Numbered from the stretch's first letter, positions 11,160-51,968 are shown. The stretch is 64,000 nucleotides of DNA from an uncultured bacterium (GCA_964356135.1 CAYHGV010000001.1:8179-72178); one strand, 5' to 3'. Notes: a model not told the origin generated them from the letters alone. Numbers and translations: made by a program.

Positions 11160-11326
11160 TAATGGAACCACAGATGCACACAGATAGACACAGATTAAAC
11201 GAAAATGAATAAGGGAAATTCTTACCGATTGACTGTAGATCGAGTACTATTTAACCATTATGGCTCGTGCGGACCGCTTCGGTCCGAGCGAGCCGAACCA
11301 TTTAACCAATTTTTGGACTGTTTTTA

Positions 11327-12823: not shown

Positions 12824-12943
12824 TATGATACCAAATACTGACCGCAGATGGACGCAGATAGACACAGATAAGAATAACACGAAGTGCTTGGTAACCGGGG
12901 GTGGTTTGTTATTTTACCGATTACCATTTAACCATTTTTTAGT

Positions 12944-18461: not shown

Positions 18462-18836
18462 ATATGGACTGCGACTCATTTATTTAGAGATTTGATTCCA
18501 CTTTTGCGAAAAAGTGAAACAGGGAAGCTGAAAGTACAGAGGGCGGTGATGTAGGATGGTTCAGCATCAGCGATTATTGTATCCTCCGCTACCGGAGCGA
18601 AATTCACCTAACCCAGGTATGGGGGTATTAGGTTTCCGAGTTTGATAATTTTGAGTAAGGTAGCGGTGCGCTCGGACTGCTACAGTCCGCTATCGCACAC
18701 AGTAAAAGCAAATCTTGGTTTTTTCTCTTTCGTTAGGCGGTGGGAACTCTTCCAGAAAGCTGTAGAAACAGGTCTTTTAGACTTGTAGATTGTTTTGGGT
18801 ATCGTTTGGCTTGACAAATCTCCGATTCAAGGGTAA

Positions 18837-19616
18837 ATGTTACCTATGGAGGCTGAAGTAAAAGCTCCAAAAGAAGAAAAAGAAAACTGGTCAGAGCAAG
18901 AACTCGTTGTCGCCTTTAATTTGTACTGCAAGCTTCCTTTTGGTCAGTATCATAAACACAATAAAAAGGTAATTGAAATTGCTAAAATTCTTGGAAGAAC
19001 ACCGAGTGCGGTTGCGCTAAAATTATGTAATTTTGCAAGACTCGACCCGGTTCATCAAAAGCGTGGTATCAGGGGAATGAAACACGGGAGCAAACTTGAT
19101 GAGAAAATCTGGAATGAATTCAATCAAAACTGGGGTGGACTTTCATATCAGAGTGAAATTGCACTTGCCCAATTAAAAGGTCTTAAACATTACGGTTTGA
19201 TAAAAGACACGGAGAAGTTTCCCCCAGGTAAAGAAAAAGAAGCACTTGTTAAGGCGAGGATAAATCAGAATTTTTTTCGTGAGATGATATTGGCAGGTTA
19301 CAGAAATAGGTGCGCGATATGTTCTTTACCTGAAGTAAATTTATTAGTGGCTAGCCATATTATACCATGGTCTGAGAATGCGGATTTACGAATGAATCCA
19401 AGAAACGGAATTTGTATGTGTGTTTTACATGATAAAGCTTTCGATAAGGGTTTAATCACGATCAATGGTGATTATAAATTATTACTTTCGAAAATACTCA
19501 AAAGACTTTCTAAAGAACCAGCTATTCAAAGGGGATTCATTTTTTACGAGAGTTTTAAAATAAGACTACCTGATAAATTTATTGAATTCCATCGAAATGA
19601 GGTATTTATCGGATGA
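18837..19616 (+). CDS. HNH endonuclease-domain protein (restriction-enzyme-like HNH_2 type) with an N-terminal domain of unknown function.
   Basis: C-terminal RCAICSL...LVASHIIPWS...NGICMCVLHDKAFDKG (Cys pair plus the H-N-H core). Confidence 0.7.
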   Translation: MLPMEAEVKAPKEEKENWSEQELVVAFNLYCKLPFGQYHKHNKKVIEIAKILGRTPSAVALKLCNFARLDPVHQKRGIRGMKHGSKLDEKIWNEFNQNWGGLSYQSEIALAQLKGLKHYGLIKDTEKFPPGKEKEALVKARINQNFFREMILAGYRNRCAICSLPEVNLLVASHIIPWSENADLRMNPRNGICMCVLHDKAFDKGLITINGDYKLLLSKILKRLSKEPAIQRGFIFYESFKIRLPDKFIEFHRNEVFIG

Positions 19617-19763
19617 TAATCAGTACTTAACAATTCGATGCTGATTGAAGAGGAAGATATGAGGCAAGGTGGTCTTGACGAGATGTTGTTTTTAATTACA
19701 CTTATATCTAAGGAAACAAGTAATGAATTCCTATGCCTGTCGAAATGATTTCAAAGGATTATT

Positions 19764-20771
19764 ATGACAAAATTTGAGGTTAACCTGAACGAGAAATTTG
19801 CTTTGATTGCTGTCAGTACGTATGTTGACCGTGAATTACCATCTGAAAGACAGTATGCTCATGACCTTTGGGCAGTAAAGCTGCTACCTATCGGTGTCGG
19901 TAATCTCTGGGAGAAATGGCTGGGAAGTATCCTGATGGATCGATTAAAAAAAAGCAGTTTGTTTTTTATTGCCAAAGGCCCTTCGACCAATCCGGAACTT
20001 CTTGATGGAGACAACAAGAAATATATGAATCGAGTTTTTAATTTTTATAGGGGTTTGTTACTAAGTGGATTTCATATCGTAGATTCACCTATTCAATTAA
20101 CAGGGGTCAATAATGACCAAATAATAGATGTCCGAGAGATTGGCGAGCTTCCGAATCCTCGTTCTATCAGTGGTGAACATAACCAAAATGTCGATTCCAT
20201 ACAACTTATAGATGCTGCAAAGGTTGCCGATGCCATCAGGGATTTGCCAGGTCGAGGGAAGCTCTCGCGGTTTAAACGGATTTTGAATGCCTTTTTAGGC
20301 GGTATTGAAAGTTATTATGTGGAAGACAAAATTCATCAATTCTGTCGATGTATCGAAGGTTTCATCTACCCAGAGGTAGGGAAGACAAAGAGCCGATTCT
20401 GTTCACGAACTGAGTTGTTTCTCGGCCCACGCAATCATACGCTGATGGATCATTTGTATGATATTCGCAGTGCGGTAGAGCATATGCATAACCCACTGGA
20501 TGCAATTAGTGGCAGAAGTGGGAAGGAAAAGCGTCTTCTACTGTTACAGCGAAGCATCGAGGCAGAAGCGGTCGCTCGCTATTGCATTCGTCATCTGTTG
20601 CTGAATCGAAATTTATGGCAATATTTTGAAAATGAAAGCACACTAAATGACTTTTGGAAGAATAAGACAAATGCTGAACGGCAAAATATTTGGGGTGAGC
20701 CGTTTGATATCGGTGCTGTCTCAACCGGGTTCGATCCTACTATTTATAATGATGCGGACCTTGGTTTTTAA
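19764..20771 (+). CDS. Hypothetical protein with an Rx4H motif (RSAVEH); possibly a HEPN-like abortive-infection or RNase-type effector.
   Basis: The ORF contains YDIRSAVEHMHN (Rx4H), lies between the HNH and methyltransferase genes, and has lower GC than the flanking core genes. Confidence 0.45.
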   Translation: MTKFEVNLNEKFALIAVSTYVDRELPSERQYAHDLWAVKLLPIGVGNLWEKWLGSILMDRLKKSSLFFIAKGPSTNPELLDGDNKKYMNRVFNFYRGLLLSGFHIVDSPIQLTGVNNDQIIDVREIGELPNPRSISGEHNQNVDSIQLIDAAKVADAIRDLPGRGKLSRFKRILNAFLGGIESYYVEDKIHQFCRCIEGFIYPEVGKTKSRFCSRTELFLGPRNHTLMDHLYDIRSAVEHMHNPLDAISGRSGKEKRLLLLQRSIEAEAVARYCIRHLLLNRNLWQYFENESTLNDFWKNKTNAERQNIWGEPFDIGAVSTGFDPTIYNDADLGF

Positions 20772-20836
20772 AGGGAGCTTAGTAGGTGAGGGTGAAGAGT
20801 AAATGGATAATTTTGTGAATATTGAATTTAATAGGA

Positions 20837-22120
20837 ATGAATACATTACATAAAATAATCATCGGGGATTCGAGGGTAATGAAAGAGGTGGTGGATGAGT
20901 CGGTTCATCTGATCGTTACCTCTCCGCCTTACTGGCAGCTTAAGGATTATGGCAATGGGAAGCAGATAGGGTTTAATGATACCTACGAGGAATATATCAA
21001 TAATCTCAATCTTGTCTGGAATGAATGCCATCGGGTTCTGCATAAGGGCTGTCGTTTGTGTGTGAATATCGGCGACCAATTTGCCCGTTCGGTTTATTAT
21101 GGAAGATATAAGGTTATTCCAATAAGAACTGAAATAATCAAGTTTTGCGAAACGGCCGGTTTTGATTATATGGGTGCAATCATCTGGCAGAAGGTGACGA
21201 CCTGTCACACTACCGGCGGAGCAACGGTGATGGGTTCTTTTCCTTATCCAAGAAGTGGAATTCTTAAGCTTGATTATGAGTTTATTTTAATTTTAAAAAA
21301 ATATGGGGGTGGTCCGAAAGTTGGCAAAGAAGTCAAAGAACAATCGAGGTTAACACAAGAGGAATGGAATCAGTATTTTACTGGCCACTGGAATTTTGCC
21401 GGTGAAAAGCAGGATAAACACCTGGCGATGTTCCCGGAAGAACTGCCGAGGCGGCTTATCAAGATGTTTAGCTTTGTCGGAGATACCGTTTTAGACCCAT
21501 TTCTCGGCAGCGGCACGACCTCTTTAGCTGCTAAAAAGCTGAATCGTAATTCTATCGGCTACGAAATAAACGGCAGTTTTCTCAAAGTCATTAAAGAAAA
21601 GTTGGAAATAAGGCAGGGGTTAATCTTTCAAAACTCTCAATCTGAGATAATCGAGCAAGCGAAGTCTAAAACAGATTTCGCTGAAAGGATAAAAAGACTG
21701 CCCTATATCTTTAAGGACCCGATTAAATTCGATAAAATGGTTGACCCAAGAAAGTTAAAATTTGGCTCAAAGATTGATAATACCCATGCTGAACGGGAAA
21801 AGTATTATACGGTTAAAGAGATTGTCAGCCCGGAAATACTGGTTTTAAGCAACGGTTTAAAAATCAGGTTGATTGGAATAAGAGCGAAATCGGCAAAGAA
21901 TGAAGAAGCGATTCAATTTTTAAGAGAAAAAACCCGAGGGCAAAGGGTATTTATGAGGTTCGACGCTGTCAAATATGACGATAAAAATAACTTGTTGTGT
22001 TATTTGTACTTATGGAATAAAACCTTCATAAATGCTCACCTGATTAAAAATGGTCTGGTTGATGTCGATACGACTTTTGACTATAAATATAAGGCAAAAT
22101 TTTTATCGAAAGGAATGTAA
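20837..22120 (+). CDS. Beta-class DNA methyltransferase (N4-cytosine or N6-adenine) with a C-terminal degenerate SNase/OB-like domain.
   Basis: Motif IV (IVTSPPY) precedes motif I (VLDPFLGSGTT), which gives the beta-class order. The C-terminal ~150 aa fit the thermonuclease fold pattern (KIRLIGI...VFMRFD...NAHLIKNGLVDVD) but lack the DGD and D-PE catalytic residues. The ORF track begins at TTG 20822. Confidence 0.8.
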   Translation: MNTLHKIIIGDSRVMKEVVDESVHLIVTSPPYWQLKDYGNGKQIGFNDTYEEYINNLNLVWNECHRVLHKGCRLCVNIGDQFARSVYYGRYKVIPIRTEIIKFCETAGFDYMGAIIWQKVTTCHTTGGATVMGSFPYPRSGILKLDYEFILILKKYGGGPKVGKEVKEQSRLTQEEWNQYFTGHWNFAGEKQDKHLAMFPEELPRRLIKMFSFVGDTVLDPFLGSGTTSLAAKKLNRNSIGYEINGSFLKVIKEKLEIRQGLIFQNSQSEIIEQAKSKTDFAERIKRLPYIFKDPIKFDKMVDPRKLKFGSKIDNTHAEREKYYTVKEIVSPEILVLSNGLKIRLIGIRAKSAKNEEAIQFLREKTRGQRVFMRFDAVKYDDKNNLLCYLYLWNKTFINAHLIKNGLVDVDTTFDYKYKAKFLSKGM

Positions 22121-22122
22121 TA

Positions 22123-22827
22123 ATGCCAAAGGAATGGATAAAAGGCGTTGAGGGCTGCGCTCTAAAGTTCAAAAGAGAGGGTTTGTTAAACGCTGCGATG
22201 AACCGTTGGGGTCTTAATAAGGCGCACAGCGTTGATACGACTTCAGAACTGATACGACAATGTTCTCCTCGATCTTTTGCAGAATGGGAAAGGTTTTATT
22301 TTAGCAATGCGAAACAAAAGAAGCGGGACGGGGTTAGGATTACAAAAAAATATTTGAAAGATTTAGGAAGGAAGCTCTATATTAAATTAACGGAAGTTGT
22401 TCAGAGTGAAATAGAATCTATTACAGAGGAAGAATGCATAGATTATGTTTTTAATCTTGTATTGAATCGAACATTTGAGGGTTATCGGTCTGAAATCCGG
22501 ACCGTTTATGGACAATTGCAGGATGCCTTGGGAGTCAGTGTCGAACCCGCTCCCGATGAGTGGGATCGGGGTTATAATGTGGATTTTTTCATTAAGGTTA
22601 AGGATAAATACATTGGCCTTCAGATCAAGCCCGCAGGATTCGCTTACATTCCGCAAATCATTAATGAATTGGGGTTTCAGAAAAAGACCCATGAAAAATT
22701 TATTGCTAAATATGGTGGTAAAGTATTCTATATAATTTCAGTCAAGGAGGGTAAACAGAAAAAAATCCATAATACCGAAGTTATTGAAAAAATTAGGAAA
22801 GAGATTCAGAGGTTGGAAAAATTATAA
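22123..22827 (+). CDS. Hypothetical protein; candidate PD-(D/E)xK-type restriction endonuclease partner of the adjacent methyltransferase.
   Basis: It begins 3 nt after the methyltransferase stop, is 234 aa, and contains GYNVDFFIKVKDKYIGLQIKP, which may be a D...K/ExK-like core. There is no firm family match. Confidence 0.4.
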   Translation: MPKEWIKGVEGCALKFKREGLLNAAMNRWGLNKAHSVDTTSELIRQCSPRSFAEWERFYFSNAKQKKRDGVRITKKYLKDLGRKLYIKLTEVVQSEIESITEEECIDYVFNLVLNRTFEGYRSEIRTVYGQLQDALGVSVEPAPDEWDRGYNVDFFIKVKDKYIGLQIKPAGFAYIPQIINELGFQKKTHEKFIAKYGGKVFYIISVKEGKQKKIHNTEVIEKIRKEIQRLEKL

Positions 22828-22892
22828 TATTACCACTTCGCTTAGGGAGGTATAGCGGGTTACAAAGCCCTCAACCAAAAGGAGGCTATTCT

Positions 22893-28649: not shown

Positions 28650-29552
28650 ATGAAACTCTCGGGCGTGCATCTCCTTGTGACCTACCGGTGTGACCTTGAG
28701 TGCGACCACTGTTTTGTTTTTGGTAGCCCCGGGCAGAGCGGCACGATGACGCTTGACCAGATCCGACAAATGCTGGGGCAGGCTAAAAAATTGGGAACGG
28801 TCGAATGGATTTACTTTGAAGGCGGCGAGCCTTTTCTTTTTTATCCGGTTATGCTCCGGGGAGTGGAAGAAGCCGCCCGCTTAGGTTTTAAAGTCGGAAT
28901 CGTTTCGGATTGTTACTGGGCGACAACGGTGGAGGATTCCCTCGAATGGCTGAAACCTTTTAGTGGATTGATTCATGACCTTGCACTGAGCGGTGATTGG
29001 TATCACGGGAATGAAGAGCCCAAGCCGGAAGTGAAAAACGCTTGTATGGCTGCAGAAAAACTGGGTATACCGGTCGGGGTCATCAGTATTGCTCGGCCGG
29101 AAAGAGGGGCAGCATCGGTGGTTGGGCAGCTGCCTCCGGGCAAATCCCGGGTTATGTACCGGGGACGGGCGGCAGAGAAACTCGTTTGCAGTGCAGTGCT
29201 TCGTCCCTGGACCGAGTTCACCGAATGTCCTTATGAAGACCTGCGCTCTCCAAAGCGGGTGCACATTGACCCGTTTGGAAATCTGCATATCTGCCAGGGG
29301 ATTGTGCTGGGAAATGTATTTGAACAAAGTTTGAGCGAGGTCTGCGCTGCGTATAACGCAGATACGCATCCCATTATCGGGCCGCTGCTTAAAGGCGGAC
29401 CAGCTGAGCTGGTGCGTTTGAATGGATTGGGTCACGAAGAAAAACATGCTGATGCCTGTCATTTGTGCTATGAAGCGCGCCGGATTTTACGGAGTCGATT
29501 CCCCGAAATCCTCAAACCCGACCAGATGTATGGGGTCACGGAACAACAGTGA
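28650..29552 (+). CDS. Radical SAM protein with an N-terminal CDLECDHC (Cx3Cx2C) motif and extra C-terminal cysteines.
   Basis: YRCDLECDHC at residues 13-21, plus further Cys residues (CPYE, CQG, CHLCYE) that could be an auxiliary cluster. Confidence 0.65.
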   Translation: MKLSGVHLLVTYRCDLECDHCFVFGSPGQSGTMTLDQIRQMLGQAKKLGTVEWIYFEGGEPFLFYPVMLRGVEEAARLGFKVGIVSDCYWATTVEDSLEWLKPFSGLIHDLALSGDWYHGNEEPKPEVKNACMAAEKLGIPVGVISIARPERGAASVVGQLPPGKSRVMYRGRAAEKLVCSAVLRPWTEFTECPYEDLRSPKRVHIDPFGNLHICQGIVLGNVFEQSLSEVCAAYNADTHPIIGPLLKGGPAELVRLNGLGHEEKHADACHLCYEARRILRSRFPEILKPDQMYGVTEQQ

Positions 29553-29577
29553 GATGGTTCAACGGACTTGACAAAAT

Positions 29578-29606
29578 TAAAAATTGTTTTATATTTCTGA
29601 CATGCA
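29578..29606 (+). promoter_or_regulatory. Sigma70-like promoter (TTGACA, 16-17 nt, TATATT) upstream of the nuoE-like gene.
   Basis: Read directly: cTTGACAaaattaaaaattgtttTATATTtc. Two direct CGGTTAAT repeats follow at about 29640 and 29690. Confidence 0.5.
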
Positions 29607-29674
29607 GAATCCTGATTACGTCTTAAAAATTCGATGCCGGTTAATCGACTTCGAGTTACATAAACTAAAGGTCA

Positions 29675-30151
29675 TTGTTGGACGCATCGGTTAATATATC
29701 CCAGATCAGGGAATTAGAAAAAACCCTCGGTAAATACAAAAACCCGAGTTCGAGTATTATTCAGATATTACAGGATATTCAGGCGGAATACAATTATCTA
29801 CCTCTCGAAGGATTAGAGTATCTTAGTTGGAAATTGCACATTCCGTTAAGCCATATTTACAGCATCGCTACTTTCTATTCCGCATTCAGCCTCAAACCGA
29901 AAGGTAAGCACATTTGCACGATATGCATGGGAACCGCCTGCCATGTCCGCGGTGCGCCGACAATCCTGAATGAATTTGAACGTCGCCTCGGCATTACCGC
30001 CGGTGAGAATACCGCGGATATGGAATATACCCTGGAAACCGTCAACTGCCTCGGCTGCTGTGCAGTCGGACCGATTGTGGTCTTTGACGGGACCTATCAC
30101 GGCGAATTCGAGCTCAAAGATGTGCCGCGGTTGTTAAAGGGTGAGCGATGA
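29675..30151 (+). CDS. NuoE/HoxE/HndA-like thioredoxin-fold 2Fe-2S subunit.
   Basis: CTICMGTAC...CLGCCAVGP cysteine pattern of the 24-kDa subunit family. Confidence 0.85.
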   Translation: MLDASVNISQIRELEKTLGKYKNPSSSIIQILQDIQAEYNYLPLEGLEYLSWKLHIPLSHIYSIATFYSAFSLKPKGKHICTICMGTACHVRGAPTILNEFERRLGITAGENTADMEYTLETVNCLGCCAVGPIVVFDGTYHGEFELKDVPRLLKGER

Positions 30152-31959
30152 AACCGACACTCATCATCTCGGCCGGAACCTGCGGATTGGCACGCGGGGC
30201 AGGGGCGATTGTCAAAACCGCCCGGAGTTACCAGCGAGAGAAACGACTAACCGATAAATTCAGCATTAAAATCACCGGCTGTCACGGCCTGTGCGAAGCG
30301 GAACCAAACATTGTCGCGGTCGTAGACAAGAAAAAAATATTCTACCAGAAGTTAAAGCCGGATGATGTAAAAGAGATTATCGATGCGACCATGCTCGAGG
30401 GTAAGATCGTCGAGCGATTGCTGTACCGTGACCCAAAGACCGACACAAGCTATACCGAGATTGACGAGGTGCCGTTTTATCGGAAACAGAAACGGCTCTT
30501 ACTCGGCAACAATCTCTGGGTTGACCCGAAATCAATCGGCGATTATCTTGCGATCGACGGCTATCAGGGTTTGAAAAAGGTGCTGAACGGGCTCGCACCG
30601 GAAGCGGTGATCACGCTGATAAAAGATTCGGGTTTGCGCGGTCGGGGCGGAGCGGGCTTTCCCGCCGGGAAAAAATGGGAGCTGTGCCGTCAGGCACGAT
30701 CGGATATAAAATATATTATCTGTAATGCGGATGAAGGAGACCCGGGTGCGTACATGGACCGGAGTCTGCTCGAAGGTAATCCGCACAGCGTGATCGAAGG
30801 CATGATTATCGGCGGCTATGCAATCGGTGCCGGCGAAGGCATTATCTATGTCCGCAACGAGTATCCGCTGGCGGTAGAGAATGTTGGCCAGGCGCTTGAG
30901 CAGGCATACAAAAAGGGATTTTTGGGTAAGAATATTCTGAAGAGTAAATTTAGTTTCGATATCCGGGTGGTGCGGGGGGCGGGTGCCTTCGTGTGCGGCG
31001 AGGAAACGGCACTGATCGCTTCGATTGAAGGGTCGGTCGGCAGACCGAGGCCGCGGCCGCCGTATCCGGTGGAGAAGGGTTTGTGGAACAAGCCGACGAA
31101 TAACAATAACGTCGAAACCTGGGCGAATGTACCGCTGATCGTCAACCAGGGTAATGATTGGTATCGTCAGATCGGAACCGCGGGAAGCAAAGGAACAAAG
31201 ATATTTTCGCTCGTCGGTAAGATCAGAAATACCGGTCTGGTTGAGGTGCCGATGGGGATTACGCTCCGAGAGATAATTTACGATGTCGGCGGCGGGATTC
31301 CGGGCGATAAAGAGTTCAAAGCGGTCCAGACCGGCGGGCCGTCGGGCGGTTGTATTTCGAAGGATTTTCTCGACCTGCCGATCGATTACGAAAGCCTGGC
31401 GGCAGCGGGTTCGATCATGGGGTCAGGGGGAATGATCGTGATGGATAACGAAACCTGCATGGTCGATGTCGCACGATACTTTTTGAATTTCACCCAGCAG
31501 GAATCATGCGGCAAATGTCCGCCCTGCCGCCTCGGAACCAAGCAGATGGTCGAGGTTCTCAATCGAATTACCGGCGGCAGCGGGAAGGCGGGCGATATCG
31601 AGATTTTGGAGGAGATGGGAATGAATATCAAGGAAGCGTCGCTCTGCGGCTTGGGCCAGACCGCACCCAATCCGGCATTGACCACCATCCGTTATTTCCG
31701 GGATGAGTATGCCGCCCATATCGAAGAGAAGCGCTGTCCGGCGCTGGTCTGCAAAAACTTGATTTCGTATGTCGTTATACCCGAGCGCTGCACCGGCTGC
31801 GTCGTCTGCGCCAAGAATTGTCCGACCGGTGCGATCGTCGGTGAACCGAAAAAGATCTATGCCATCCACCAGGATAAGTGTATCAAGTGTGGGATTTGCA
31901 TCTCGGTCTGCCCGCCGAAATTTCGGGCGGTAGCAAAGGTATCACCGGTAATACAATGA
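30148..31959 (+). CDS. NuoF/HoxF/HndC-like NAD(P)H- and FMN-binding 51-kDa subunit with C-terminal 2x[4Fe-4S] ferredoxin domains.
   Basis: GRGGAGFPAGKKWE; ESCGKCPPCRLG (the N3 cluster); C-terminal CTGCVVCAKNCP and CIKCGICISVCP. Confidence 0.9.
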   Translation: MKPTLIISAGTCGLARGAGAIVKTARSYQREKRLTDKFSIKITGCHGLCEAEPNIVAVVDKKKIFYQKLKPDDVKEIIDATMLEGKIVERLLYRDPKTDTSYTEIDEVPFYRKQKRLLLGNNLWVDPKSIGDYLAIDGYQGLKKVLNGLAPEAVITLIKDSGLRGRGGAGFPAGKKWELCRQARSDIKYIICNADEGDPGAYMDRSLLEGNPHSVIEGMIIGGYAIGAGEGIIYVRNEYPLAVENVGQALEQAYKKGFLGKNILKSKFSFDIRVVRGAGAFVCGEETALIASIEGSVGRPRPRPPYPVEKGLWNKPTNNNNVETWANVPLIVNQGNDWYRQIGTAGSKGTKIFSLVGKIRNTGLVEVPMGITLREIIYDVGGGIPGDKEFKAVQTGGPSGGCISKDFLDLPIDYESLAAAGSIMGSGGMIVMDNETCMVDVARYFLNFTQQESCGKCPPCRLGTKQMVEVLNRITGGSGKAGDIEILEEMGMNIKEASLCGLGQTAPNPALTTIRYFRDEYAAHIEEKRCPALVCKNLISYVVIPERCTGCVVCAKNCPTGAIVGEPKKIYAIHQDKCIKCGICISVCPPKFRAVAKVSPVIQ

Positions 31960-32094
31960 TTACTATAAATTCTAAATTCGAAGTTCGAAATTCGAAACAA
32001 GCACGCATAATCAAAATACAAAATTCAAAACTGCACTATTCAAATTTTGAGCACTTAGAATTTGGGTATTGTTCTGAATTGAACAGAGCGAGAA

Positions 32095-34266
32095 ATGGTT
32101 ACATTAAAAATTGACGATAAAGAGATAACCGCCCAGACTGGCGAGACGGTTTTAGCGGTCTGCGAGCGGGAAGGTATCTATATACCGAAGCTCTGCTATC
32201 ATAAAGAACTCGAACCCTACGGCGGCTGTCGGCTGTGCCTGGTGGAAGTGGCGGGGATGAAGAATCCGTTAGCGGCCTGCACCCTTTTTGTTCGAGATGG
32301 AATGGTGATAAAAACCGATACCCCCGAGCTTAAGCGGCTGCGCACGTTCAGTTTACAATTGATTTTATCCGAGCATCCCCATGCCTGCCTCGTCTGTACC
32401 AAAAAGGATGAGTGCGCTCAGTACCAGGAATGTATCCAGAAGTCGGCAGTCACCGTCGGATGTAAATTCTGCACCCGGAACGGCAACTGCGAATTGCAGA
32501 AATTAGTGGAGTATTTGGGCATTAAAGAAATTTCGGTTGCGGTCAGCTACCGCGGTCTCGGGGTTGAACGGTCAGACCCGTTCTTTGACCGGGACTACAA
32601 CCTCTGTATTCTCTGCGGCCGCTGTGTGCGGATGTGCGAGCAAGTGCGAGGGGCGGCAGTCCTGGCCTTCAGCAGTCGGGGTCCGGAAACCCGGGTCGGA
32701 ACCGCGTTCGGGCTCGACCATCTCGATGCCGACTGCCAGTTCTGCGGTGCCTGTGTTGATGTCTGCCCGACCGGTGCCTTGAGCGAGCGGTTCAACCGCT
32801 GGGAAGGGGCTGCGGATAGTTCGGTCAATACTGTCTGTCCTTTGTGCAGTATTGGCTGTGCGATCAATCTTAATATTAAAGAAAAGAAGGCGGTCAGCGT
32901 AACTCCGAATGAAAACCATATCTGTGTGCGGGGACGATTTGGTGTGGTTCCGCTCATCTATCATCCGAAACGGGCGACCACGCCATTATTGAAAAAAGCT
33001 AACCGCATGGTCTCGGTTGGCTGGGACGAGGCTCTCGGTTTTGCCCGAACAACCCTGAATGAAAACAGGGAAAAAACTGGCATCATCGTATCACCCCAGG
33101 TGACGGCGGAAACAATTGATGGACTTGTGAGACTGGCGCAGACGCTCGGCTGTGCAATAGCTTCTACCGGCACGAGTCACGGTACTCCGCTCCGGGTCGA
33201 ACAACTGGACCGGGATGGTGTTTATCTTTGTGTCAATACCGACATGGTCAGTGATTACTCGGTGCTCTGGTTGCAACTTCGGCACAAAGGCGGAAACCCG
33301 AAACTGGTCGTGATCGATTCGGTCGCGAACCGGAGTGCAAAGAAAGCCGACCTCTGGTTACGGCCGAAACCCGGCCAGGCAGCGGTGCTGGTCGAGTTGA
33401 TCATGAGCCGGCAAGAGAAGGTCAATAAAACCGGGGTGGCAAAAACCGATATTGAACGAGCCAAAAAATTGTTAGCCGGAAAAAAAATCTATCTCGTCAG
33501 TGATCCCGAGACGGCAGCCGGGATCAAGCTGCCAAAAACGGTTGAGCGTGTTTCCCTGGTCAGCCACATTAACGCATTTAAGATCGAACAGTCCGGCATC
33601 ACGGCGACGGTTGATGAACTGTTGAACAACCGGTCGATCAACTGTCTCTACGTGGTGGGAGGGATGCCGAAACTGAGACGACCGTACCCGACGGTCATTG
33701 TTCAGGACCTGTTTCCCGACGCCGGCCAGTGTGATCTGTTTCTGCCGGCGGCAAGCTTTGCCGAAGTGAACGGCAGTTTCGTCGATATGACCGGTGGGTC
33801 AAAAAAGCTCAGCCCGGCGATTGACCCGAGAGGTAACGTCAAGCCGGACGACTGGATAGTTAATGAAATCGCCAAGGGGCTCGGCACCAAACCGACTGAG
33901 ACCCGCATCGAAAAAAAGAAACGGACTACCCAGGCTGCACCGGTGGCGATTAAGCCCACGAAGAAATTTCCCTTTTATCTTGTGGTTCGGCCCAATGCGT
34001 ATAGCTATCGGAACCGACCGCTCGCTTCTCTGCTTCGAGGGTTTTCCCGGCTCCGTAACGATGACCGGCTCTGGATGAGCCCCAGGGATGCAAAAAAACT
34101 GGGCGTCAAGGATGGAGACCGGGTGACGGTCGAGAACGGTACTCTTAATTGCGTGCTGCCGGTAAAAATAACTGATGCGGTTTTGGAAGGAATGCTCCGT
34201 GCCGGCGAAGATGTAACGCTGGGGCTGACGCATGACGCAGCGGTGAGGGTGAAATGTATCGGGTGA
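32095..34266 (+). CDS. NuoG-like subunit. It has an N-terminal 2Fe-2S site, a His-ligated 4Fe-4S site and further 4Fe-4S sites, followed by a molybdopterin-oxidoreductase-like domain with no Cys or Sec at the active-site position.
   Basis: The iron-sulfur motifs are CYHKELEPYGGCRLC, HPHACLVCTKKDEC, CILCGRCVRMC, CQFCGACVDVCP and CPLCSIGCAINLN...CVRGRF. No [FeFe] H-cluster motifs are present. The position of the FdsA active-site Cys reads TSHG here. Confidence 0.75.
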   Translation: MVTLKIDDKEITAQTGETVLAVCEREGIYIPKLCYHKELEPYGGCRLCLVEVAGMKNPLAACTLFVRDGMVIKTDTPELKRLRTFSLQLILSEHPHACLVCTKKDECAQYQECIQKSAVTVGCKFCTRNGNCELQKLVEYLGIKEISVAVSYRGLGVERSDPFFDRDYNLCILCGRCVRMCEQVRGAAVLAFSSRGPETRVGTAFGLDHLDADCQFCGACVDVCPTGALSERFNRWEGAADSSVNTVCPLCSIGCAINLNIKEKKAVSVTPNENHICVRGRFGVVPLIYHPKRATTPLLKKANRMVSVGWDEALGFARTTLNENREKTGIIVSPQVTAETIDGLVRLAQTLGCAIASTGTSHGTPLRVEQLDRDGVYLCVNTDMVSDYSVLWLQLRHKGGNPKLVVIDSVANRSAKKADLWLRPKPGQAAVLVELIMSRQEKVNKTGVAKTDIERAKKLLAGKKIYLVSDPETAAGIKLPKTVERVSLVSHINAFKIEQSGITATVDELLNNRSINCLYVVGGMPKLRRPYPTVIVQDLFPDAGQCDLFLPAASFAEVNGSFVDMTGGSKKLSPAIDPRGNVKPDDWIVNEIAKGLGTKPTETRIEKKKRTTQAAPVAIKPTKKFPFYLVVRPNAYSYRNRPLASLLRGFSRLRNDDRLWMSPRDAKKLGVKDGDRVTVENGTLNCVLPVKITDAVLEGMLRAGEDVTLGLTHDAAVRVKCIG

Positions 34267-35078
34267 TCGAACGGCGAGAGCTGGTTCCCAATATCCATCT
34301 TTTGGTTATCGAATCGGGATTTATTCATGCCAATGCCCGGGCGGGTGAGTTCGTGGTGGTGCGGGCAGATGAGCCGGGCGAACGCATTCCCCTTAATCTG
34401 GTCGATTGGAATGATACGAGCGTGAGTACGGTTTTTATGGAGGTTGGAACATCAACCCGCAAGCTCGCCAGTCTCAATCCGGGTGATGCGATTCCGACGC
34501 TGGTCGGTCCGTTGGGTAAACCGACCGAGATTCCCGAGGGGAAGAACATTGTCTGCGTGGGGGGTTGCTACGGGATTGGAGCTCTCGCGCCGGTGGTTCG
34601 TGCTTTCAAAGAGAAAGGGAATCGAGTGAGGACGGTCATTGAAGCGAGAAGCAAATTCCTTCTCTATTGGCAGGACAAGCTGAAAAAATCCAGCGACGAG
34701 TTTTACGAAATTACCCGCGATGGTTCCGCCGGCAGGAAAGGGCATATCGACAGCTTTTTGACCGAGTATCTTTCTCGCGAGCAAACTGATCTGGTCTATG
34801 CCCAGGGCTGTACCTATCTTACCTACCTTGTTTCCGAGACGACCCGGCCGCTGAATGTCAAAACGATCGTCGGCTTGAACCCGGTGATGGTTGATGCTAC
34901 CGGTATGTGCGGGGTCTGCCGGGTGGTTGTTGACGGTCAGTTAAAATTTGCCTGCGTTGACGGTCCGGAATTTAACGGTCATCAGGTTGACTGGCCGAAT
35001 CTGCTTGCCCGGCGGCACACGTATATTGACGAAGAACGGATTTCATTAAGTTTCTACGAGTGTGAGCGCTATGGCTAA
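34254..35078 (+). CDS. NfnA/SudB-like FAD plus 2Fe-2S subunit (PyrK family).
   Basis: C-terminal MCGVCRVVVDGQLKFACVDGPEF cysteine cluster with a ferredoxin-reductase-type FAD/NAD fold. It overlaps the nuoG-like gene by 13 nt. Confidence 0.8.
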   Translation: MYRVIERRELVPNIHLLVIESGFIHANARAGEFVVVRADEPGERIPLNLVDWNDTSVSTVFMEVGTSTRKLASLNPGDAIPTLVGPLGKPTEIPEGKNIVCVGGCYGIGALAPVVRAFKEKGNRVRTVIEARSKFLLYWQDKLKKSSDEFYEITRDGSAGRKGHIDSFLTEYLSREQTDLVYAQGCTYLTYLVSETTRPLNVKTIVGLNPVMVDATGMCGVCRVVVDGQLKFACVDGPEFNGHQVDWPNLLARRHTYIDEERISLSFYECERYG

Positions 35079-35206
35079 GCATACTATAAAAACCACGGAA
35101 TACACTGAAAGCACTGAACAACAGATTCGGATAGTTCATTATTTTCCTTCCGTGTCCGCCATAGATCGTGGCGGATCCGTGGTTACATTATTTGTCCGGG
35201 GACTTG

Positions 35207-36607
35207 ATGGCTAACATCGTTCCGAAAAAGACCGCGATGCGGGAACAGCCGGCCCAGGAACGGGTCAAAAACTTCGAAGAGGTTCCGTACGGCTACAGCC
35301 CGGAGGAGGCAATATTCGAAGCCAAGCGGTGTCTGTTGTGCAAGCGGTCAACCTGTATTGGAGGCTGTCCGGTAGAAATTGATATTCCCGGTTTTATTCA
35401 ATTGATTGCCGAAGGGGATTTCAAAGGCGCGATCAAGAAATTGAAGGAAAAGAATGTCCTGCCGGCGGTGTGCGGGCGGGTCTGTCCGCAGGAGGACCAG
35501 TGTGAAAAGGTCTGCGCCCTGGCAAAAAAATTCGAACCGGTTGCCATTGGTCGATTAGAACGATTCGCCGCGGACTGGGAAGCTGCCCAGGGCGAGTCGC
35601 CCGTTCCTGAAAAGCCGGCCCCCACCGGGAAAAAGGCGGCGGTGATCGGCGCAGGTCCGGGCGGTTTGACGGTTGCCGGCGATTTAATCCGACTCGGACA
35701 TGCAGTAACTATTTTCGAAGCTCTGCACAAACCGGGCGGGGTGCTGGTGTATGGCATCCCCGAATTCCGTCTGCCCAAGGCGATCGTCTACCGGGAAGTA
35801 GATTACCTCGTTCGGTCCGGGGCGAAGCTCGTCCTCGATTTTGTCGTCGGCAAAACGGCGACGATTGACCAGCTGTTAAAAGAATTCGACGCGGTCTATA
35901 TCGGTACCGGTGCCGGCCTTCCCTGGTTTATGAATATTCCGGGTGAAAACCTGAACGGAGTCTATTCGGCAAATGAATACCTGACCCGCTCCAATTTGAT
36001 GAAAGCCTATCTCTTTCCGGAGTATGATACTCCGATTGTGCGCGGAAAGAATGTCGCAGTGGTCGGCGGCGGAAATGTAGCGATGGACTGTGCTCGGACG
36101 GGATTGCGGCTCGGTGCGGATGAAGTCCGGATAGTCTATCGCCGCTCGAAAACCGAGATGCCGGCTCGGATCGAGGAGATTCACCATGCGGAAGGAGAAG
36201 GAATAATCTTTGAATGGTTAACGTTACCGGTGAAATACTTCGGCGATGAAAAAGGCTGGATCAAGAGGATGGAGTGCATCAAGATGGAGCTGGGTGAGCC
36301 CGATTCATCGGGTCGAAGAAGGCCGGTGCCGATTGAAGGTTCCAATTTCATAACCGAGGTGGATACGGTGGTGTGTGCAATCGGCCAGAGTCCTAATCCA
36401 CTCATTCCCCAAACGACTCCGGATTTGAAGATTGGCAAATGGGGTAATATTGAAGTTGATCCAAAGACCAACCGCACGGCTAAAAAGGGTTGCTTTGCCG
36501 GTGGTGATGTTGTGCGGGGTGGGGCGACGGTGATTCTGGCAATGGGTGATGCCCGAGTCGCGGCGCGGTCAATGGATGAGTATATGAGAACCGGTATCTG
36601 GAAATAG
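35207..36607 (+). CDS. NfnB/SudA/GltD-like NAD(P)H-dependent FAD oxidoreductase with an N-terminal 2x[4Fe-4S] domain.
   Basis: CLLCKRSTCIGGCP and CGRVCPQEDQCEKVC motifs. The dinucleotide-binding sites are AAVIGAGPGG and VAVVGGGNVAMDCART. The ORF track begins at GTG 35168, inside a palindrome; the ATG at 35207 is the more likely start. Confidence 0.85.
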   Translation: MANIVPKKTAMREQPAQERVKNFEEVPYGYSPEEAIFEAKRCLLCKRSTCIGGCPVEIDIPGFIQLIAEGDFKGAIKKLKEKNVLPAVCGRVCPQEDQCEKVCALAKKFEPVAIGRLERFAADWEAAQGESPVPEKPAPTGKKAAVIGAGPGGLTVAGDLIRLGHAVTIFEALHKPGGVLVYGIPEFRLPKAIVYREVDYLVRSGAKLVLDFVVGKTATIDQLLKEFDAVYIGTGAGLPWFMNIPGENLNGVYSANEYLTRSNLMKAYLFPEYDTPIVRGKNVAVVGGGNVAMDCARTGLRLGADEVRIVYRRSKTEMPARIEEIHHAEGEGIIFEWLTLPVKYFGDEKGWIKRMECIKMELGEPDSSGRRRPVPIEGSNFITEVDTVVCAIGQSPNPLIPQTTPDLKIGKWGNIEVDPKTNRTAKKGCFAGGDVVRGGATVILAMGDARVAARSMDEYMRTGIWK

Positions 36608-36707
36608 GCTCAACAAAAACAATCGGCAGTTTTATCCACGAAGTGCTTTTAGAAAAACCCGGATTAAAAAATTAAATATCCCCGCGCCGACGCCGGGCGG
36701 AACTTTT

Positions 36708-37826
36708 CTACGATCCTCCTGCCCGTCCGGAATTCCTGTTATCGCGGCGGAATTTAGGCCAGGGACTCGAGGCGAGGGTGCCTGACCCGACCAGAGCGTA
36801 GAGGTAACTATCATACGAGCCGACATAGACGGTTCCATCCAGACCGAGAGCTGGTGACGACCAGATTTCATCGCCCGTTTTGTGTTTCCATTTCAGGCTG
36901 CCATCCGATTTGAGTGCATAGAGGTAGGTATCGCCGGACCCGACATAGATGGTGCCATCCGAACCGACCGCCGGTGATGACCAGATCGAACCACCGGTCG
37001 CATATTTCCACTTGAGCGTGCCGGTCGGGTTTATTGCATACAGGCAGTTATCCTCAGAGCCGACATAGATGGTTCCATCCGGACCAATCGAAGGAGCAGA
37101 CCAGATCCCTTTGCCGGTTGCGAAGCTCCATTGTAAGGTGCTGTCCGGGTTGAGCGCATAGAGGTTTTTATCCTCCGAGCCGAAATAGATGGTTCCAGCC
37201 GAGCCGATTGCGGGCGAAGAGATCAACTTATCGCCGGTTTGATATCGCCATTTCAAGTATCCGTCGGGCTGAAGGGCATAGAGACAGCTGTCCTCGGAGC
37301 AAAAATAAATTGTTCCATCCGAACCGATTGCCGGCGAAGACCGTATCCAGCCATTGGTTCTGAATTTCCATTTGGGACTCCCATCACCGGCTATGGCATA
37401 GAGGGCGTTATCAAGTGAGCCGAAATAGACGGTGCCGTCAGGACCGAGGGCGGGCGATGAACGGACCCAGCCGCCGGTTTTGTATTTCCATTTCAGTGTG
37501 CCGTTGGGGTTGAGCGCATAGAGGTAATCATCATCCGAACCGATATAAATCGTTCCATCCGGTCCGATGAGCGGAGAAGAGACGATCGAATAGTTTGTCC
37601 CGTATTCCCATAGTTTATTTCCGTCAGCCTTCAGTGCATAGAACTTGGAATTGATCGAGCCCACATAGACCGATCCATCGGGCGCGATTGCGGGAGATGA
37701 CGAAACCTGCCCGACTGTCCAGAATCTCCACTTCAGCTTCGATGATTTTTCCGTGCAGCCGAACATAAAAACTCCTGCCATCAAGATTCCGATGCAGGAG
37801 CCAACGAACAATTTATGCCTCAACAC
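36708..37826 (-). CDS. Lipoprotein with about 8 PQQ-like beta-propeller repeats (BamB-like fold).
   Basis: Lipobox MFGCTEK, then repeats of the form G.LKWKY.TGG.I.SSPA.G.DGTIY.GS.D..LYA. Confidence 0.75.
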   Translation of the reverse strand: MLRHKLFVGSCIGILMAGVFMFGCTEKSSKLKWRFWTVGQVSSSPAIAPDGSVYVGSINSKFYALKADGNKLWEYGTNYSIVSSPLIGPDGTIYIGSDDDYLYALNPNGTLKWKYKTGGWVRSSPALGPDGTVYFGSLDNALYAIAGDGSPKWKFRTNGWIRSSPAIGSDGTIYFCSEDSCLYALQPDGYLKWRYQTGDKLISSPAIGSAGTIYFGSEDKNLYALNPDSTLQWSFATGKGIWSAPSIGPDGTIYVGSEDNCLYAINPTGTLKWKYATGGSIWSSPAVGSDGTIYVGSGDTYLYALKSDGSLKWKHKTGDEIWSSPALGLDGTVYVGSYDSYLYALVGSGTLASSPWPKFRRDNRNSGRAGGS

Positions 37827-43978: not shown

Positions 43979-44470
43979 AGATGAGAGTAACGGTTTTTAT
44001 CACAACTGTCAAGTTAAGCCATTGAGAGCTCTGCGAAACTACAAAAATTATCACGAAAGCACGAAAGGACGAAATTCGAAGAATAGAGTGATTGCAAGGA
44101 ACTCAAAGCCACGAAAAAATAAGCGTAGTATTTTCAAAAAGTTAGAACCTTTCGTGTTTTCCGGATTTCGTGGTTCACGTGATAAAAAGGACTTTTTCAG
44201 GGGTCTCCCATTAGAACTATGATTAACCACAGAAGACACTGAATCCGCCATAGTGCGTGGCGGAACGGAAGGGTAATTGTTTGTATTTCATTATAATTAT
44301 TCGGTGAGTTCCGTGTCCGCCATGTTGCGTGGCGGATCAGTGGTTAAAAATGATTTTTCCAGGGTGGCCATTTGTTTCGCAGCGTGTAGCAGAAGCAAGA
44401 ATCTACGAGTTCGTATAATCAGTCTTATCAGGACTGGATAAAAATCAGGTCTGTCCCGTGCAACGAGGGA

Positions 44471-45151
44471 TTACTTAAAAACTATAACCTTCTTCACGCT
44501 CCTTAACTTTCCGGCAGTAAGGTTGATAAAATAGACCCCCTGCGCATTACCGGTCATATCCAGTTGGAGATGATAATTTCCGCGTTCCTGCACGCCATCC
44601 GCCAGCCTCTTGATTTCTCGTCCGGCTATATCGTAGACGCTTAATGCAACCTCACCTCTTGCAGGTATTTGATAGCTGATTGTCGTTGTCGTGGAGGTTG
44701 GATTTTGACCAAGACGCAGATTTGGACTCTCTACTGTGAGATTTGAATTTTCCTCCACACCTCCTTCCGGACCTAATCTGATGAGATAAACATCAGCCCC
44801 ACCTGCCCCGTAAGAAGTAGTCATGCCTGCGATGATATAACCGCCATCATCGGTCTGCACCACTGAATTGCCCCTATCTCCACCACTGCCGCCACAGGCT
44901 TTTGTCCAGAGTGTATCGCCATTGGCATCAGTCCTGATGAGATAAACATCACCACTACCTTTGGTGTAATACCCGATCATACCCGCTATAATATATCCAC
45001 CATCACCCGTCTGCGCCACTGAATGGCCTGCATCCCAATCACCGCCGCCATATGTTTTTGTCCAGAGCGTATCTGGTGGTTGGGCAGGTACCGTGTTCGG
45101 AAATAGCACTGCTACCATTACCACTAAACCTAATATTTTTATTCTCTTCAT
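44471..45151 (-). CDS. Secreted beta-propeller-repeat protein with a type IX secretion C-terminal sorting domain. It is a paralogue of 49403..50392.
   Basis: Signal peptide MKRIKILGLVVMVAVLF. Repeats of the form DTLWTKTYGG..D.G.SV.QT.DGGYIIAG. A C-terminal NPTSTTTTISYQIP...GVYFINL...KKVIVFK, which is typical of the T9SS sorting domain. The ORF track extends to 45328, but that stretch is unlikely to be coding. Confidence 0.7.
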   Translation of the reverse strand: MKRIKILGLVVMVAVLFPNTVPAQPPDTLWTKTYGGGDWDAGHSVAQTGDGGYIIAGMIGYYTKGSGDVYLIRTDANGDTLWTKACGGSGGDRGNSVVQTDDGGYIIAGMTTSYGAGGADVYLIRLGPEGGVEENSNLTVESPNLRLGQNPTSTTTTISYQIPARGEVALSVYDIAGREIKRLADGVQERGNYHLQLDMTGNAQGVYFINLTAGKLRSVKKVIVFK

Positions 45152-51803: not shown

Positions 51804-51968
51804 TAAGTTATTATACACAGAGAGATACAGAGGATTAAATTCTAAATCCCAAATTCTATACCCTAAACAATTTTTAAATCTCAATTTCTTAAATTCCAAA
51901 AGGGTTTGGATATTGATAATTTTTGATTTGTTTAGGATTTCGGATTTAGAAATTAGAATTTATTAAAG

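Follow-up and report, generated by a model that had tools for sequence, protein, structure and literature searches.

The 64,000-nucleotide (nt) stretch analysed here, hereafter the window, comes from an uncultured bacterium (GCA_964356135.1, CAYHGV010000001.1:8179-72178). Its genome is related to metagenome-assembled genomes (MAGs) of TA06, Stahlbacteria and WOR-3. At positions 29675-36607 it carries five co-oriented open reading frames (ORFs), all on the + strand, in the order bfuC-bfuB-bfuA-nfnA-nfnB (E-F-G-A-B). A first-pass annotation of this DNA had described five such genes with overlaps or short gaps, and had proposed that one operon joins a NuoEF(G)/HydABC-type module with NfnAB into a candidate five-subunit complex. 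The gene layout was confirmed, and synteny, gene fusions and signatures in BfuA and NfnA speak for the proposal. Our preferred interpretation, held with modest confidence, is that the five genes form one operon for one soluble complex, an iron-sulfur flavoprotein of the Bfu (HydABC-type) family, in which NfnS/NfnL (here NfnA/NfnB) would act as the NADP(H) module. Relatives were collected by a pattern scan in which each species was represented by one genome, and which yielded 80 loci encoding BfuA relatives, and the five window proteins were mapped onto these loci by blastp. A set of 47 operon copies was used to compare ligands, motifs and distances. Apart from one position of the B2 site in BfuB, each of the five subunits keeps its full set of cofactor ligands, and these are invariant in the 47 copies.

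The first two genes encode BfuC and BfuB. BfuC contains a thioredoxin-like [2Fe-2S] domain (PF01257, E=1e-44), in agreement with its first description as a NuoE-like 2Fe-2S subunit, and scores under the curated cut-offs of the HoxE, NuoE and FdsG models (131 vs 141 for NuoE). BfuB holds an N-terminal [2Fe-2S] ferredoxin-like domain, a flavin mononucleotide (FMN)/NADH site (GRGGAGFP, GGPSGG), an N3-type [4Fe-4S] cluster, a His/Cys site known as B2 and two C-terminal [4Fe-4S] clusters, so that the GRGGAGFP site and the 2x[4Fe-4S] ascribed to a NuoF-like subunit are both present. Its best solved relative is the NiFe-HydB subunit 7t2r_B (E=4.8e-236), and the B subunits of Nfn-Bfu/Stn enzymes are also matched strongly (9n5u_B, 2.9e-218; 8oh5_B, 1.7e-210; 9bov_B was matched as well). 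Bifurcating B subunits, HydB from A. woodii included, are matched over the whole length with E-values of about 1e-236 to 1e-198, whereas the non-bifurcating NuoF and FdsB cover only the central part of BfuB (about 1e-113), and the NuoF equivalog model stays under its cut-off (487 vs 559).

All ligand columns of BfuB are invariant across the operon copies. They include the B1 features GRGGAGFP, ESCGKCxxCR and SLCGLGQ, the cysteines of the C-terminal clusters B3 and B4 (C548/551/554/558 and C578/581/584/588), and C12, C45 and C49 of the N-terminal [2Fe-2S] cluster B5, which aligns with 7t2r_B and 7q4v_B. At the B2 site, H524, C437, C530 and C535 are invariant. The B2 ligands of the A. mobile enzyme are His525, C438, C476, C531 and C536, and the position of C476 is occupied by Thr both in the window and in the majority of operon copies. 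The C. saccharolyticus NfnB also has a Thr at this position, and its B2 site holds Zn (PMC12318220). Judged by its cluster domains, the GGPSG motif, the His and Cys residues at the B2 site and its best matches, BfuB appears to be of the bifurcating type. The term flavin-based, used initially for the bifurcation of the whole complex, suits the Nfn half; it does not suit the Bfu core, which has been described as a flavobicluster of FMN and iron-sulfur clusters (PMC12018979).

BfuA matches the Fer2_4, NADH-G_4Fe-4S_3, Fer4_Nqo3, Molybdop_Fe4S4, Molybdopterin and Molydop_binding domains. It contains an N-terminal [2Fe-2S] cluster, a His-ligated [4Fe-4S] loop, 2x[4Fe-4S], an FS0-type [4Fe-4S] cluster and a degenerate molybdopterin-like domain, and the ligands are invariant. 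The two molybdopterin domain matches, together with the name 'formate dehydrogenase alpha subunit' that databases give to some homologues, might suggest that BfuA is a cryptic molybdenum (Mo) or tungsten (W) enzyme similar to formate dehydrogenase, or else a hydrogenase, which would make the system an Fdh- or Hyd-Bfu. We regard this as extremely improbable. The closest solved chain along most of BfuA (three stretches) is the cofactor-less NuoG-like subunit A of the NiFe-HydABCSL complex from A. mobile (7t2r_A), the match to FdsA is restricted to residues 2-355, and the alignment with 6tg9_A stops before the Mo ligand. The stretch equivalent to the Cys-His of the FdsA Mo ligand (about residues 356-368, AIASTGTSHGTPL) is shorter in BfuA, holds no Cys or Sec and is unconserved in 19 homologues. 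The formate dehydrogenase alpha model TIGR01591 reaches 111 against a cut-off of 666 and the NuoG model TIGR01973 reaches 230 against 470. No Fe_hyd_lg_C (PF02906) domain, and with it no H-cluster domain, was matched in BfuA, and the A6 hydrogenase model gives 205 against 765, in the N-terminal part only.

The [FeFe]-hydrogenase HydABC (no PF02906, A6 model under cut-off) and the NAD-dependent formate dehydrogenase FdsABG (no Mo ligand, TIGR01591 under cut-off) were rejected as identities for the module. The first-pass annotation had likewise concluded that the system is neither an [FeFe] hydrogenase nor a formate dehydrogenase, and neither an H-cluster domain nor Mo-ligand residues were found. 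It was also right that the NuoG-like subunit lacks a Mo ligand; the TSHG it presented as the active-site motif, on the other hand, lies in a region without conservation and carries no meaning as such a motif. BfuA is therefore described here as a protein predicted to have no catalytic site of its own. The source record of one homologue uses the name 'NADPH-Fe(3+) oxidoreductase subunit alpha'.

BfuA also shows a feature that sets it apart from its solved relatives. Its His-ligated loop (H94-x3-C98-x2-C101-x5-C107) is followed by a second copy (C113-x9-C123-x2-C126-x5-C132-ELQ), and all eight residues are invariant in the 19 homologues. The duplicated CxxCx5C-ELQ is found in 77/77 readable loci (79 have a full-length BfuA, and in two the ORF is split or cut at this point), and at position 113 the WOR-3-like clade has a Cys, a second clade mostly a Thr. 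FdsA and NiFe-HydA have a single copy of the loop. StnC-like chains carry their inserted GltD domain exactly at the point of the duplicated loop: BfuA aligns to residues 4-117 and 563-807 of 9bov_A, with the GltD insert between them, and NfnB covers residues 101-500 of the same chain and, in circularly permuted order, 532-567. In Stn, the insert site is where the NuoG-like chain receives electrons from the NADPH module (PMC10482914). We predict that the duplicated loop of BfuA forms an additional Fe-S site.

The last two genes encode proteins of the Nfn type. NfnA passes the cut-off of the NfnA/SudB-type model NF004862 (321 bits vs 220), in line with the PyrK/NfnA-like subunit carrying flavin adenine dinucleotide (FAD) and 2Fe-2S that had been annotated, and its matches to solved chains include NfnS from P. 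furiosus (5jca_S, 5e-73) and 4ylf_A (2e-60). The FAD motif ERIPL (ERxPL) and the [2Fe-2S] ligands D214, C219, C222 and C234 are invariant. The two nucleotide-binding motifs are not those of the standalone enzymes: all 47 operon-linked copies have GGC105[YF]G (GGCYG in the window) and QGC186 (QGC..L), while the 117 'standalone' homologues, a set dominated by T. maritima-like sequences, all have GGGVG and VGP, with Gly and Pro at these positions. The solved NfnA/NfnS chains carry the standalone form (GGGVG, VGPxxMM), and three GGGVG-type homologues whose context was examined were all plain standalone nfnAB pairs. Six positions (C105, C186, Y138, R155, L189 and T197) are fixed differently from the standalone proteins; the codons of C105 and C186 lie at 34566-34568 and 34809-34811. 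Because cysteines replace Gly and Pro in both motifs, the site of the ferredoxin-NADP+ reductase (FNR) type, which binds NAD(H) in classical NfnSL, appears to be remodelled in every BfuABC-linked NfnA. In FNR-type folds the two loops that hold C105 and C186 line the nucleotide cleft, and one can speculate about a disulfide or a metal site.

NfnB is more conventional. The NfnB/SudA-type model TIGR01316 gives 599 bits against a cut-off of 471.75, which bears out its annotation as a GltD/NfnB-like subunit with 2x[4Fe-4S] and an NADPH site, and the match to T. maritima NfnB (4ylf_B) has E=1.3e-176. The protein holds 2x[4Fe-4S], FAD and NADPH sites and the Glu ligand of NfnL (LERF), as opposed to the Lys of Stn (LKRF); the LERF Glu, PEFRLP, GGGNVAMD and YRR are invariant in the operon copies. 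None of its nine clade-specific positions falls on a cofactor ligand, as judged against only five standalone comparators. In a neighbour-joining tree, the NfnB proteins from T. maritima and P. furiosus lie outside the operon-linked set, a weak separation given that they are the only two outgroups. By their signatures, the operon-linked BfuA and NfnA form specialised subfamilies rather than generic neighbours.

The five-gene unit is conserved far beyond the window. Of the 64 loci that extend far enough downstream, 63 encode NfnA and NfnB after BfuA; NuoE-like and NuoF-like proteins are encoded upstream in 61 of 62 informative loci, and the order is E-F-G-A-B in all counted loci. Operon conservation in related genomes, proposed initially as a check, is thus seen as near-universal synteny across phyla. 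The hosts are MAGs of WOR-3, TA06, Stahlbacteria, Fischerbacteria, Edwardsbacteria, Aminicenantes, Acidobacteriota, Planctomycetota, Chloroflexota, Eisenbacteria, Syntrophobacteraceae and Thermoleophilia, about a dozen phyla, mostly uncultured, and the flanking genes differ among the loci with listed gene calls. The genes are tightly packed, with median intergenic distances of about -1 nt (F-G) and -0.5 nt (G-A). In the closest relatives, with BfuA 64% and NfnB 91% identical to the window proteins, every junction overlaps. This distribution indicates that the adjacency of the five genes is not due to chance. Since BfuA has no apparent catalytic site, the BfuABC module would need a partner for its third substrate, and NfnAB is the sole conserved neighbour of BfuA. 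A variant arrangement is found in a short WOR-3 contig (L029 1-1188), where a GltD-like gene 43% identical to NfnB lies directly 5' of BfuA, in the usual place of bfuB; such a pair would be SfrAB-like.

The features of the operon in the window are listed in Table 1. The bfuC stop and the bfuB start overlap as ATGA, and bfuA shares 13 nt with nfnA, whose Shine-Dalgarno sequence is GAGGG, two overlaps that amount to translational coupling. For nfnB, the ATG start is likelier than the upstream GTG, because a 466-aa product matches its relatives and a GGGGA lies upstream. The promoter-like site before bfuC matches 11 of 12 consensus positions and is the best of seven in the region; the total of such sites does not exceed the shuffle expectation, so it is to be read as a consensus match only.

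Table 1. Features of the bfuCBA-nfnAB operon and its leader, in window coordinates (aa, amino acids).
Feature	Position	Strand	Remarks
Promoter-like site TTGACA-16 nt-TATATT	29568..29595	+	About 80 nt 5' of bfuC
bfuC, NuoE/HydC-like, 158 aa, TTG start	29675..30151	+	PF01257
bfuB, HydB-like, 603 aa	30148..31959	+	Complex1_51K, SLBB, NADH_4Fe-4S, C-terminal 2x[4Fe-4S]
bfuB-bfuA intergenic insert, 135 nt, AT-rich	31960..32094	+	Absent from relatives; can fold into a long hairpin
bfuA, NuoG-like, 723 aa	32095..34266	+	NuoG-type domains, degenerate molybdopterin-like domain
Duplicated cluster-binding loop within BfuA	32374..32490	+	Eight invariant residues
nfnA/nfnS-like, 274 aa	34254..35078	+	NF004862
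nfnA-nfnB intergenic insert, 128 nt	35079..35206	+	Holds REP-like palindrome 35155-35175
nfnB/nfnL-like, 466 aa from ATG 35207	35207..36607	+	Fer4_20 and Pyr_redox_2, TIGR01316; ORF open from GTG 35168

Two junctions of the window operon are interrupted by inserts that its closest relatives lack. In two of these (L001 and L002) F overlaps G, and an overlap of nfnA with nfnB is likewise seen in relatives; the two inserts are taken as lineage-specific insertions because all junctions overlap in the closest relatives. The insert between bfuB and bfuA has a minimum free energy of -25.4 kcal/mol (z=-2.7), and part of it (31966-32000) resembles 51836-51870 (family D16), a dispersed AT-rich element. 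The scan of the + strand called no promoter-like site in either insert at its threshold and no terminator-like site in the bfuB-bfuA insert; the nfnA-nfnB insert contains one weak terminator-like site of 8 pairs, 3 of them G-C, with the tail ACATTATTTG. No riboswitch or other known RNA was found in the leader or the inserts by an Rfam scan of 29400-36800 at E<=1.

The palindrome TCCGCCA-N7-TGGCGGA within the second insert had been named as a possible mark of a separate promoter, which would leave NfnAB as a standalone pair. Five copies of it occur in the window (14053, 14841, 35155, 44244 and 44316), all intergenic, against 0.02 expected. The copy at 35155-35175 folds as an 8-bp hairpin (family D9), and the similarity between copies reaches into the flanks, with 35148-35185 and 44309-44346 being 87% identical. 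The palindrome is a dispersed element resembling repetitive extragenic palindromic (REP) sequences and is not specific to the operon. With its dispersed, REP-like nature and no promoter-like site in either insert, a role as operator or promoter was ruled out, and its position inside the nfnA-nfnB junction means that it cannot set NfnAB apart as a transcription unit of its own. In enterobacteria, REP hairpins inside operons can affect how stable the mRNA upstream of them is. By analogy, the hairpin would alter subunit ratios and not operon membership.

Gene fusions provide a link between the two halves of the system. In a Thermoleophilia MAG (L056, context from the blastp map), BfuA and NfnA form one polypeptide of 1131 aa (P0121). 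A database search with this protein returned five more BfuA::NfnA fusions of 1133-1153 aa, 56-58% identical to P0121 and derived from NCBI, JGI and ENA sources; the gene calls of two loci (L084 and L085) show E-F-[G::A]-B operons. Kept across such divergence, the fusions count as classical Rosetta-stone evidence, which would point to a physical association of BfuA with NfnA. The Cys form of the NfnA motifs is present in five of the six fusion proteins. The distance matrices of the 47 operons correlate at r=0.88-0.94 within G/A/B, at 0.91 within E/F and at 0.77-0.83 between the two sets.

The flanks of the fusion lineage (L084 2268-2597 and 9889-11984; L085 2266-2595 and 9866-11994) carry DRTGG-domain genes, a small HATPase_c gene and a protein with Fe_hyd_lg_C and FeS (PF04060) domains. 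Such sets presumably act as H2-sensing regulators where they stand beside bifurcating HydABC operons. If that role holds, their presence hints at a possible H2-responsive control of the fusion-lineage operon.

The arrangement could also result from two separate enzymes that are co-transcribed, a self-sufficient NfnAB and a BfuABC with its partner elsewhere, linked by a shared role in NADH/ferredoxin balance. We hold this explanation to be possible, if doubtful. The matches of NfnA and NfnB to solved standalone enzymes are strong, all their cofactor ligands are retained, and nfn genes are known from varied clusters, in some species together with multimeric [FeFe]-hydrogenase genes (PMC6405883). 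Opposed to it are the six conserved BfuA::NfnA fusions, the invariant order of overlapping genes in about a dozen phyla, a BfuA with neither a catalytic site nor another conserved neighbour, the altered NAD(H) motifs in all operon-linked NfnA (0/117 standalone) and the family-specific extra Cys loop of BfuA. On these comparisons, the predicted association of the subunits appears well supported.

Several observations nevertheless weigh against a single complex. NfnB is a canonical NfnL at every checkable ligand and about 61% identical to the self-sufficient NfnB from T. maritima, and the NfnAB pair could therefore still act alone. One locus has E-F-G without NfnAB (L038), as would suit two separate enzymes, and in another, at a contig end and outside the upstream count, G-A-B is followed after about 2 kb by E-F (L040). 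In the window, the two hairpin-forming inserts part F from G and A from B and could uncouple their expression, which again fits separate enzymes. The 'standalone' NfnA set being mostly T. maritima-like narrows the comparison of motifs, and the distance correlations are partly expected from shared ancestry and are given little weight. An AlphaFold2 model of the natural fusion P0121, built on a 31-row alignment, reached a mean predicted local distance difference test score (pLDDT) of 72.8 and a predicted template modelling score (pTM) of 0.69; it has no readable interface, and pLDDT drops below 50 at the cluster loops (119-232), in the FAD domain of NfnA (841-931) and at the C terminus. The support as a whole is comparative, and the organisms are all uncultured.

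Among known enzymes, the closest in chemistry to the proposed complex is Stn/NfnABC (S. ovata, C. saccharolyticus and T. sibiricus; 8oh5, 9n5u and 9bov), while NiFe-HydABCSL is the closest in architecture and sequence. Like the operon, Stn/NfnABC has a BfuBC core, a NuoG-like scaffold with an inactive pterin-like domain and a GltD/NfnL-type NADPH-FAD module with two [4Fe-4S] clusters, and the net chemistry is probably the same. The GltD domain of Stn, however, is inserted in the BfuA polypeptide, whereas the operon has a separate nfnB gene, and a duplicated Cys loop in BfuA where StnC has the inserted domain. The ligand of the FAD-proximal cluster of Stn is a Lys (Lys170), in contrast to the Glu and the CPQExQC motif of the operon NfnB. 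The operon also encodes an NfnS/NfnA subunit, while according to the structure paper on Stn, that enzyme lacks a homologue of NfnA, and Nfn lacks one of HydBC (PMC10482914). The resemblance to Stn with split subunits, as seen in the first reading, thus stands; the 'extra NuoG-like connector' does not, as StnC/NfnA(Bfu) already contains a NuoG-like part. Compared with Stn, what would be new, as read from the genes, is the GltD-like module as a separate NfnB-type subunit and the presence of NfnA/NfnS. In an Aminicenantes genome (L059 11805-15209, - strand), a 1134-aa protein is encoded convergently to E-F-G-A-B, and its GltD-like part has the permuted order of StnC (NfnB 46-460, then 5-45). Because this StnC-order GltD part adjoins E-F-G-A-B, both kinds of NADPH module may coexist in one genome.

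The NiFe-HydABCSL complex from A. mobile (7t2r) is the closest solved relative of BfuB and, over most of its length, of BfuA. It combines the shared BfuABC with extra subunits 'S' and 'L' that carry the site for the third substrate (PMC9304861). These are a [NiFe]-hydrogenase pair, whereas the extra subunits of the operon are the NADPH flavoproteins NfnS/NfnL; the operon further differs in the extra Cys loop of BfuA and in the Thr in place of the fifth B2 Cys. With NfnAB/NfnSL (T. maritima, 4ylf; P. furiosus NfnI, 5jca) the operon pair shares all FAD, [2Fe-2S] and [4Fe-4S] ligands, including the Asp and the Glu. It differs from the free-standing enzyme in its position behind bfuCBA and in the fusion of NfnA in six proteins, both of which are genomic evidence only, and in the replacement of the NAD(H) motifs GGGVG/VGP by GGC[YF]G/QGC. 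A precedent for wiring BfuABC to a second bifurcating module is the proposal for the Bam-Bfu benzoyl-CoA reductase (BamB-I), in which that module is HdrA (PMC9304861). By its description, Bam-Bfu has HdrA and a W-pterin partner instead of NfnSL, other substrates and many more subunits. SfrAB from G. sulfurreducens, which pairs a NuoG/Fdh-like alpha subunit without a Mo ligand with a GltD-like NADPH beta subunit, resembles parts of the operon by description, the name given to one BfuA homologue being the only link to it. It is not known to contain a NuoE/NuoF-type core or NfnA.

In the literature, bifurcating enzymes fall into four classes without relation to one another, and NfnSL and the Bfu-type NfnABC/Stn are treated as unrelated alternatives (PMC10482914, PMC12018979, PMC12318220). 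The types of the Bfu classification are FeFe, NiFe, Nfn (fused), Fdh, F420, Wor, Bam, Codh, Por, Mbh, Nuo and Rub; it lists no NfnSL-linked type and leaves 17 BfuB clades unassigned (PMC9304861). No earlier description of the five-gene unit was found in the searchable literature, which largely excludes subscription journals, and the initial remark that no characterised complex has this arrangement agrees with that incomplete record. The unit would be best filed as an unfused, NfnS-containing relative of Stn within the Bfu family.

In the proposed complex, the bifurcating core BfuBC would be joined to the NfnS/NfnL pair through the catalytically empty BfuA, so that NfnS/NfnL would occupy the place of the 'SL' subunits in NiFe-HydABCSL or of the fused GltD domain in Stn/NfnABC. 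NADP(H) would react at the FAD of NfnL, and electrons would pass from the Nfn clusters through BfuA to the FMN/Fe-S site of BfuB. They are proposed to enter BfuA by way of NfnS, with its remodelled NAD(H) cleft and its fusion to BfuA in some lineages; because of the fusions, the co-variation and the altered cleft, NfnS is the best-supported contact of BfuA. The extra Cys-rich site of BfuA, at the insertion point of Stn, is a candidate relay. BfuB would then split these mid-potential electrons to NAD+ and ferredoxin (Fd) or, in the physiological direction, merge electrons from NADH and reduced ferredoxin. The net reaction would be 2 NADPH + NAD+ + 2 Fd(ox) <-> 2 NADP+ + NADH + 2 Fd(red), as in Nfn/Stn, a choice made because it is thermodynamically balanced at the physiological potentials quoted in PMC9304861.

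A different mode of action would be bifurcation in tandem, where the FAD of NfnL splits the electrons of NADPH and one branch passes into BfuA and is split again at BfuBC; the result would be a 'geared' transhydrogenase, for example 4 NADPH + 3 NAD+ + 2 Fd(ox) <-> 4 NADP+ + 3 NADH + 2 Fd(red). NfnL keeps the Glu cluster ligand typical of bifurcating NfnL, together with the Arg of PEFRLP, unlike the non-bifurcating StnC with its Lys (PMC10482914), and serial bifurcation at two sites is therefore conceivable. The complete extra-cluster set of BfuB and the two-module design proposed for Bam-Bfu (PMC9304861) also fit. The Arg of PEFRLP, however, occurs in the non-bifurcating StnC too, the remodelled NAD(H) cleft of NfnS suggests a change in the high-potential exit to NAD+ that the simplest form needs, and the 3:1 stoichiometry would be unfavourable for NADPH formation (our own estimate with the potentials from PMC9304861). 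As the idea is purely inferential, we consider it quite unlikely.

A broader proposal would be a hitherto unrecognised class of supercomplexes that brings together two of the four known kinds of bifurcating enzyme, the bifurcating FAD of NfnSL being physically wired to the flavobicluster of BfuBC, with the NfnS cysteines and the BfuA Cys loop as the junction, possibly through a new inter-subunit metal site. Such a class might perform serial bifurcation with a non-standard stoichiometry and might also represent the unfused evolutionary link between NfnSL and Stn/NfnABC; we think it unlikely.

Many anaerobes depend on electron bifurcation to conserve energy, and a complex of BfuABC with NfnSL would probably balance NADH, NADPH and ferredoxin. 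If it exists as proposed, it would add an enzyme type to the Bfu family in phyla common in sediments, aquifers and digesters, provide a concrete candidate for the origin of the fused Stn enzymes, and serve as a test system for two bifurcation sites within one complex. When the metabolism of WOR-3, Aminicenantes and related genomes is reconstructed, calls of 'NuoEFG', 'formate dehydrogenase alpha' and 'NfnAB' would also have to be read differently.

The neighbours of the operon in the window are unrelated to it: genes for an HtrA-like protease, a metallophosphoesterase and a radical SAM protein lie upstream, and a convergent beta-propeller gene downstream. In another view, BfuABC serves a membrane complex as a detachable module for NADH/ferredoxin input, the complex being either Nuo-Bfu-like or of the Mbh/Mrp type encoded 17 kb upstream, with NfnAB being unrelated. 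A cluster resembling complex I and group-4 hydrogenases is indeed present in the window (15-13426), and Nuo-Bfu enzymes have been predicted (PMC9304861). We nonetheless consider this view very improbable. The cluster owns its input subunits (Mo-pterin, HycB-like and PyrK-like), unrelated genes and a restriction-modification island separate it from the operon, and the predicted Nuo-Bfu enzymes have their BfuABC genes within the nuo cluster (PMC9304861). The NuoE, NuoF and NuoG equivalog models all stay under cut-off, and no membrane-subunit genes are adjacent in the neighbourhoods with listed gene calls, the other loci having been searched with the five query proteins only. The N-module of complex I (NuoEFG) was rejected as an identity for BfuCBA on the same model scores and on the absence of adjacent nuo membrane genes here and in the listed neighbourhoods.

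The membrane-bound cluster itself (15-13426 and 14165-14773, + strand) resembles formate-hydrogenlyase/Mrp-type modules of the complex-I/group-4 [NiFe]-hydrogenase kind. Its electron-input proteins are a PyrK-like FAD/[2Fe-2S] protein, which the edge of the window may truncate, a 544-aa molybdopterin oxidoreductase and a HycB-like 2x[4Fe-4S] protein. These are accompanied by NuoH-, NuoC- and NuoD/NiFe-large-subunit-like proteins, three Mrp/NuoL-type antiporter subunits, MbhD/E and MnhE, and a ferredoxin is encoded nearby. A perfect 14-nt tandem repeat (CTTATGAAGGTGCC) at 905-957 spans the end of the first ORF of this cluster (911) and the start of the second (950). Between the cluster and the operon, at about 18800-22830, lies a block of low GC content (0.41 vs about 0.52) with genes for an HNH endonuclease, an N6/N4 DNA methylase and a MjaI-type restriction endonuclease, which is probably an acquired restriction-modification island.

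Downstream of the operon, the convergent beta-propeller gene (36708-37826, - strand) is of the BamB/PQQ type and contains, at 36792-37702, seven periodic repeats of 120 nt with 63-71% identity that correspond to its blades. Further along, two paralogous genes on the - strand (44472-45074 and 49404-50314) share a 300-nt stretch that is 87% identical and carry arrays of 156-nt repeat units. Upstream of these paralogues, similar sequences are found at 45286/50522 and at 44393/50625.

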